This document shows, piece after piece, positions 12,299 to 12,938 of a DNA stretch of 26,826 nt. Origin of the DNA: Candidatus Colwellbacteria bacterium RIFCSPLOWO2_01_FULL_48_10. GTDB lineage: Bacteria > Patescibacteriota > Minisyncoccia > UBA6257 > Colwellbacteraceae. Position numbers and translations under genes: made by a program. The stretch spans positions 11,145 to 37,970 of the forward strand of contig MHIY01000012.1 of the NCBI GenBank assembly GCA_001817755.1, read 5' to 3'. Below the pieces are notes generated by a model that saw nothing but the letters and a program-made list of their open reading frames with translations, was not told the DNA's origin and did no database searches. How positions within the stretch are numbered: the first letter of the stretch is position 1; every line of letters starts with the position of its first letter.

Positions 12299-12938
12299 TA
12301 GGCGAAGCAAGAGCTTCGCGCTTAACAACCTAAACGGTACCGTAATCTCCGAAATGAAGCCTAAAAGGATATTCGCTCGGAAAGGATGGGGTGCAAACCG
12401 GATTAGATACCCGGGTAGTCCTGTTCTCGCCCTCACGAGGGCCAAGCCGAGTGGCAAAGCAAAATCCTCATGTTCTCGCTTCAATAGCTGGTTACCCCGC
12501 TCCACCTCGCGGAAAAGGAAACCAAGCCGAATGGAGCGAGGATCAGGCACAAGCAAACCTGCCCAGTGACGTTGTACGCGCCGAATTGAAGAATCTTACT
12601 AGGCGTTCGCTCGTTAAACGGCGGGAGGAGTCTCCCCAGGCGGGTGTGTAAACGCCGCGGCCGGGGAGTTCTTCTGAAATCCAAGACCGCAAGGTCTTGG
12701 TTGGGAGAGGAGCCGATTCAAACCCGGCCGGTACCACTTGTTCCTTCTTTACCTAATGGGGCAAAGTCTGATGAGGATCTTTCAGACCACCACACCAACA
12801 ACATCCATAATCCTCATGGTGACATAGCCGGGCTTTCACCTGGCGCCGGTTCGATTCCGGTAGCCCCAAATCTGCTCCGACCAGTTTGTCGGAACCCGCG
12901 GCTGATGCGCGCACTTGCGCCCTCAGCCGCATTTATTT
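12299..12938 (+). ncRNA. Large structured ncRNA candidate with rRNA-like modules and a tRNA-like 3' domain; class unassigned
   Basis: Many stems (12302-12319, 12429-12442, 12498-12538, 12659-12729, 12681-12700 with a GCAA loop), 16S h24-like 12388-12421, 23S H68/H69-like 12558-12636, T-arm 12845-12861; bounded by a promoter and a terminator. Ends are approximate. Confidence 0.65.

Follow-up and report, generated by a model that had tools for sequence, protein, structure and literature searches.

A short piece of 16S rRNA, helix 24 (h24) with its 790 loop, is found isolated between two tRNA genes, inside a putative structured RNA of approximately 640 nt. As judged from its sequence, the patch at 12375-12427 is 16S-derived and is neither a chance match nor a product of convergence. 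The window, that is, the whole analysed stretch of 26,826 nucleotides, corresponds to positions 11145-37970 of contig C12 in a 746-kb genome (34 contigs, 92% complete), which was obtained from groundwater metagenomes and belongs to a candidate phyla radiation bacterium of Parcubacteria type. The features discussed below are as follows.

12228-13112, unstranded: whole non-coding insertion of 885 bp, between tRNA-Leu (12141-12227, minus strand) and tRNA-Cys (13113-13185, minus strand)
12263-12292, plus strand: promoter-like site, TTGACA and TATCCT with an 18-nt spacer, 10 of 12 consensus matches, predicted start near 12299
12296-12940, plus strand: putative structured non-coding transcription unit of approximately 640 nt that contains the hairpin; folding z-score of -5.6, several helices, no Rfam match
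12375-12427, plus strand: 16S helix-24-like hairpin; 16S-like at 12375-12423, apical stem 12398-12401/12411-12414, basal stem 12383-12389/12420-12427
12402-12410, plus strand: 790-loop nonamer AUUAGAUAC, predicted to be single-stranded (p 0.98) in both competing folds
12705-12746, plus strand: segment able to pair with both arms of the hairpin, approximately 32 pairs with probabilities of 0.45-0.73, closing a 365-nt domain in which the nonamer forms a bulge
12757-12868, plus strand: tRNA-like 3' domain, made up of a 6-bp acceptor stem, 12757-12762 with 12863-12868, and a canonical T arm at 12845-12861, pair probabilities of 0.94-0.97
12898-12940, plus strand: intrinsic terminator, G+C-rich stem of 8+4 bp followed by a U-rich tail, stem p 1.00, working on the plus strand only

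The helix 24-like hairpin and its limits

In the bacterial small-subunit (SSU) model RF00177, positions 763-796 are aligned by Infernal to 12388-12421 of the window with 33 of the 34 consensus bases retained, at 30.6 bits (E = 1.2e-7) in a genome-wide search and at 25.3 bits (E = 1e-5) in a 311-nt slice. All eight pairs modelled in the structure line are standard, and the apical and middle pairs are all formed. Against the E. coli-type 29-mer the identity is 27/29; the two departures, C at 12399 and G at 12413, are partners in the apical stem of the model and therefore amount to one compensated C-G pair. The loop nonamer is identical to the 790 loop of 16S rRNA. The initial annotation, made from the letters alone, had placed an h24-like sequence here with exactly this match and a single compensatory pair, and the model-based alignment bears out both statements. 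Its description of the pair as the archaeal variant does not hold, since the archaeal SSU model has no match at E<=10 where the bacterial model matches, and the same CCGG/CCGG stem is found in a genuine bacterial 16S gene, that of G044, which belongs to the same order. The corresponding stems in the 16S genes of other relatives are AAGG/CCTT, CGGG/CCCG or CAGG/CCTG, and that of the one archaeal 16S compared is GTGG/CCAT.

The likeness to 16S is sharply bounded. BLAST comparison with real 16S genes contained in phage and plasmid collections extends it over 12375-12421 at about 87-90%, and the nhmmer range is 12380-12433. Outside the patch, neither Infernal nor nhmmer detects SSU-like sequence in the surrounding 885 bp, and the rest of this stretch matches neither the SSU and LSU models nor the phage and plasmid collections. 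SSU covariance models and nhmmer were also used to look for a degenerate 16S pseudogene of full length, the outcome fixed beforehand as counting against an isolated module; the confinement to h24 rules it out. A uniformly decaying pseudogene is likewise excluded, because no further SSU or LSU likeness surrounds the copy. The patch comprises the conserved loop GGAUUAGAUACCC, a stem of four apical base pairs and the pairs that flank it in the SSU model, and thus belongs to the 16S helix 24 motif. As an SSU rRNA gene or pseudogene (RF00177/RF01959) it fails, covering 34 of 1533 model positions at 25-31 bits against a gathering score of 50 bits.

At the base of the hairpin, 12383-12387 can close with 12423-12427 through the pairs A-U, G-C, G-U, A-U and U-G with 12422 bulged, so that the basal stem can be built from non-rRNA sequence as the initial annotation described. 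Two of these pairs are wobbles, valid on the plus strand only. The three inner basal pairs are changed from 16S on both strands and pairing is still possible. By our own estimate, non-rRNA sequence would provide such a basal closure by chance in roughly 3% of cases. Compared with the CCGG-type 16S of G044, the copy has 0 mismatches over 28 apical positions and 5-6 changes in about 17 positions 5' of the apical part. On these grounds the earlier view of the copy as a maintained module is plausible. The further suggestion that 785F/806R-type primers could capture the RNA is correct in that the degenerate 785/806 site matches by eye, and trivial in practice, since one primer site alone yields no amplicon.

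Genomic setting and the putative 640-nt unit

The insertion lies at a variable spot of an otherwise conserved neighbourhood. The gene order infB-rbfA-tRNA-Cys-tRNA-Leu is kept across the family, with RbfA and IF-2 encoded on the opposite strand on one side of the unit, and TsaD, a class I aminoacyl-tRNA synthetase (presumably LeuRS), a PrsW protease, Hsp20 and a 113-aa ORF on the other. In most family genomes tRNA-Cys and tRNA-Leu are separated by 1-190 nt. Unrelated inserts of 650-1060 bp occupy this spacer in five genera, this one included (12228-13112 compared with loci L088, L103, L104, L109 and L147), and the spacer is thus an insertion hot spot in the family. In the nearest relatives on record, whose RbfA is 62% identical, the two tRNA genes lie 13 nt apart, so the 885 bp represent a lineage-specific insertion. 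Among 5.8 billion sequences there is no RbfA protein of 63%-100% identity to that of the window, and hence no nearer kin on record; a metagenome scan with RbfA yielded one distant locus only. Homologues of the 640-nt unit were found neither by BLAST in 60 relatives nor, outside the 16S-like patch, in the phage and plasmid collections, and its sequence occurs in no RNA run.

The region 11300-13700 is contiguous and 100% identical in eight independent assemblies, comprising one NCBI genome, several k=141 megahit assemblies from several samples, and two scaffold sets, and is therefore not an assembly chimera. Neither these assemblies nor the contigs from four other runs contain any population variation. 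The short-word Logan contigs from two further samples are interrupted exactly at 12392/12393; this is likely a graph break at a word common to real 16S genes and does not count against contiguity. In the Logan contigs of the four other runs, 12272-12352 has no cover, with both sides covered.

The 885-bp stretch contains no credible genes, and the only ORFs in the unit are rich in arginine and lysine; the unit is apparently non-coding. Its promoter-like and terminator signals run opposite to the flanking tRNA genes, and tRNA-Leu has a promoter-like site of its own (12269-12242) pointing the other way. The unit is probably transcribed. Compared with shuffled sequence, the plus strand folds with a z-score of -5.6 and the minus strand with -4.9. 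Helices of high probability are predicted at 12302-12319, 12472-12543, 12558-12625, 12632-12668 and 12681-12700, and in the tRNA-like 3' domain. Besides the SSU patch, cmscan of 12200-13150 reports no Rfam family at E<=10, which places the unit outside GOLLD, ROOL and the other large RNAs of Rfam. No similarity to the unit is present in the tRNA-end elements of approximately 130 nt in the same window. Elsewhere in the window, positions 243-362 (plus strand) match the model of LOOT RNA (RF03000) over its full length, at 81.5 bits against a cut-off of 46.4 bits.

Several further identities for the unit or its parts were considered and rejected. A 23S H68/H69-like module at 12558-12636 found no backing, RF02541 and RF02540 being without a genome match at E<=10 and nhmmer with four LSU genes detecting no 23S likeness in the unit; the model-based searches give no support to an "interface patchwork" of ribosomal pieces. 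The unit is not RNase P, for which the genome has a below-threshold candidate on contig C32. It is also neither a tmRNA nor a permuted tmRNA: ARAGORN and RF00023 are negative, the G3-U70 pair is absent (G-C at position 3), no tag reading frame is present, and a normal tmRNA of the genome is encoded on contig C20.

The T arm of the 3' domain shares 96% identity with those of the tRNA-Gly genes of this genome. The domain consists of acceptor stem and T arm only, and neither ARAGORN nor RF00005 calls it a tRNA. None of the 39 tRNAs of the genome carries that acceptor stem, and no source tRNA for the piece was found in viral contigs. The 5' flank of the h24 copy at 12386-12397 (ATGGGGTGCAAA) resembles the 5' acceptor strand at 12756-12766 (ATGGGGCAAAG); either region could pair with the 3' GCCCCA, which would give the RNA two alternative ways to close.

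Two folds compete for the hairpin. In the thermodynamic ensemble, the long-range pairing of both arms with 12705-12746 is preferred, at about 0.7 against about 0.25 for the local hairpin. This long-range pairing is equalled in 91 of 300 shuffles, and being no better than shuffled sequence it was set aside as a significant feature. The local h24-like hairpin alone is predicted at -14.5 kcal/mol, and forcing the h24 fold in the whole RNA would cost 7.6 of 253 kcal/mol. The nonamer is predicted to be unpaired in either fold.

Isolated modules elsewhere and the organism's own 16S

Of the organism's own 16S only the 3' third is assembled (contig C16, 1-478), starting at about position 968. This genuine piece was missed by the covariance-model searches of the genome and found by nhmmer. 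Within C16, 1-1600, an insertion of about 1 kb splits the 16S sequence close to the 3' end of the gene; the insertion has an ORF with a GFFDAEG motif that, on visual inspection, looks like a homing endonuclease of the LAGLIDADG type.

A second isolated SSU module, spanning h34-h40, is present in the same genome on contig C25 at 11232-11377 (locus L047, 3233-3378, minus strand), corresponding to positions 998-1145 of the archaeal SSU model. It scores 114.8 bits with the archaeal model versus 83.3 bits with the bacterial one, retains most pairs intact, and is unlike the organism's own 16S. The contig is clearly bacterial. The non-coding gap that holds the module measures 699 nt (about L047, 2869-3567), leads from a Mur ligase gene to yebC, folds with a z-score of -4.2 and has a minus-strand terminator. 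No isolated module of this kind was found in any of 100 relatives. Kinship between the units of C12 and C25 was considered and dropped, as they share no similarity.

Outside the 16S gene, the 13-mer core of the h24 copy occurs in two of 401 genomes of the order, this one and Candidatus Jorgensenbacteria GW2011_GWB1_50_10 (G228). The copy in the latter is a CCGG-AUUAGAUAC-CCGG hairpin with GTGGGGAGC in front of it. It lies on contig C2 of that genome (L117, 1443-1700), in an intergenic unit of approximately 230 nt in which features like those of a promoter and a terminator can be made out by eye. The Jorgensenbacteria genome has its own 16S elsewhere, with the stem CGGG/CCCG versus CCGG/CCGG in the isolated copy. 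The SSU model does not recognise this copy, and a search of 60 genomes of the same family yielded no homologue of the unit.

In IMG/VR, the 17-mer of stem, loop and stem has eight matches versus three for a scrambled-loop control; three of the eight lie in ORFs and five are non-coding, two of the latter beside phage tRNA genes. Three of the non-coding viral hairpins have a longer core in common, with outer stems that vary and remain complementary. These three, in which the 790-type loop is identical and the stem is CCGG, are the following.

L124, 3449-3493: viral hairpin with 790-type loop and CCGG stem
L129, about 5141-5185, minus strand: the same type of hairpin
L127, about 8545-8575, minus strand: the same type of hairpin

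The L127 copy is situated inside a phage tRNA array together with several extra T-loop-bearing structures. Among 185,579 species genomes the 19-mer core has 2 matches, and a wide family of GGCCGG-loop-CCGG hairpins was rejected on this count. The Jorgensenbacteria and viral copies are taken as leads and not as a family, because the counts are near chance expectation.

Possible roles, rival explanations and known relatives

The reading that we tentatively prefer is that the rRNA-derived patch displays this loop as a decoy or docking site. An RNA would be made from the plus strand of the unit and would present the AUUAGAUAC nonamer, closed by a stem of rRNA type, in imitation of the 30S platform; its partner may be a reader of the 790 loop such as IF3, KsgA/RsmA or platform r-proteins, or an agent attacking the site. 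Consistent with such a role are the h24-limited covariance-model match with its pairing kept, the perfect apical part next to an altered 5' flank, the re-formed basal pairs, the plus-strand signals and strong folding of the unit, the exposure of the loop and the low cost of the h24 fold. In addition, a second SSU subdomain exists in a structured non-coding unit of the same genome, and non-coding DNA of one Jorgensenbacteria genome and of a few phage contigs contains hairpins with identical loop and CCGG stem whose outer stems are different and co-vary. Against it stand the missing homologues of the unit, the uniform population, the lack of any RNA run with the sequence, the engagement of both arms in the preferred long-range fold and the rarity of isolated copies; no gene for a 790-loop ligand adjoins the unit, and a recently captured patch would be equally perfect without selection. 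A broader proposal is unlikely, namely that at least two large orphan RNAs in this genome embed exact SSU modules (h24 with the 790 loop in the present unit, which also has a tRNA-like end, and h34-h40 on C25) and form a "ribosome-surface decoy" class. Such RNAs might titrate or recruit factors of the 30S platform and head, with assembly or initiation factors, ribosome-targeting toxins or phage proteins as conceivable targets.

Neutral capture is nearly as likely as the decoy or docking reading. The short 16S piece and the piece of tRNA T arm and acceptor stem could possibly have been captured as the 885-bp segment arose or was inserted, for example as filler in illegitimate recombination or repair, leaving a hairpin without a role whose copy is still perfect because it is young. 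Other genera carry different, unrelated inserts at this hot spot, no relatives of the unit were found, pieces of both rRNA and tRNA, the templates in greatest supply, occur in it, and a second rRNA piece exists elsewhere in the genome; sporadic isolated copies that form no family and a long-range pairing no better than shuffles also fit a passenger. Harder to reconcile with it are the improbable basal closure by non-rRNA sequence, the abrupt change from a perfect apical part to altered flanks, and the character of the surrounding DNA, which with its strong structure and intact promoter-like and terminator signals is not junk-like in so small and streamlined a genome.

Exchange with the organism's own 16S, by gene conversion or paralogy, is quite improbable. 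Recombination would here keep a CCGG-type h24 identical at the DNA level, possibly as a target for recombination or for a homing endonuclease. The Logan breaks at 12392/12393 are expected if a word of at least 31 nt is shared in the community or organism, an ORF resembling an endonuclease lies in the insertion of the own 16S, and the 5' two thirds of that gene are missing from the assembly; yet the 16S stem of family members is different (AAGG/CCTT), the other isolated module, on C25, is very unlike the own 16S, and the patch is short for homologous recombination. Far less credible is a functional minus strand, on which a single transcript would run through tRNA-Cys, the spacer and tRNA-Leu, and its 29 nt antisense to 16S h24 would pair with 16S rRNA or its precursor. 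Both flanking tRNA genes lie on that strand and it folds well, but tRNA-Leu has its own promoter-like site, and the terminator, the T-loop motif and the basal G-U pairs work on the plus strand only. An artefact, be it a chance match or a chimera assembled across a conserved 16S word, is hardly to be entertained. Such words are classic chimera points, the Logan contigs break here and 12272-12352 is uncovered in four runs; against this, eight independent assemblies agree, neither flank is 16S-like, and the covariance-model E-value is 1e-7.

If the hairpin is used, it would extend rRNA mimicry beyond the known setting of r-protein leaders, to a large free-standing RNA that shows a near-identical copy of a highly conserved ribosomal loop; with a minimal genome and an atypical ribosome as its host, this would point to new regulation or protection of the 30S platform. 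If it is a passenger, short rRNA pieces would be captured into the intergenic DNA of these genomes, and a conserved 16S word outside the rRNA genes would matter both for the filtering of reads by rRNA likeness and for assembly graphs, where a break occurs at this point.

Among known systems, GOLLD (RF01998) and ROOL (RF03087) are RNAs of several hundred nucleotides that are densely structured, have their own transcription signals, lie near tRNA genes and are patchily distributed. The unit is like them in size, dense structure, transcription signals, tRNA-gene neighbourhood and patchy distribution, without a family of homologues having been found. With tmRNA it shares an acceptor and T-arm part joined to a large structured body, and its 5' GGGG...GGAUU.GA motif resembles the 5' end of tmRNA by eye. 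Like rRNA pseudogene fragments, the h24 copy is a piece of an rRNA gene outside an rRNA operon; in contrast to them, it shows no graded decay into the flanks, and its edges coincide with a helix re-closed by foreign sequence. Unlike h24 within rRNA, the copy stands isolated between tRNA genes and draws its basal stem from other sequence. The leaders of S15, S8/spc, S6:S18 (rpsF leader) and L20 are autoregulatory and mimic rRNA sites (PMC3895269, PMC7247131). The likeness to these r-protein leaders lies in a non-ribosomal RNA that reproduces a small protein-binding piece of rRNA. The unit is flanked by tRNA-Leu and tRNA-Cys with no r-protein gene downstream, whereas r-protein leaders are situated in the 5' UTRs of r-protein operons; their mimicry is one of shape with little sequence identity, and the h24 copy is nearly sequence-identical to rRNA and is embedded in a 640-nt RNA.
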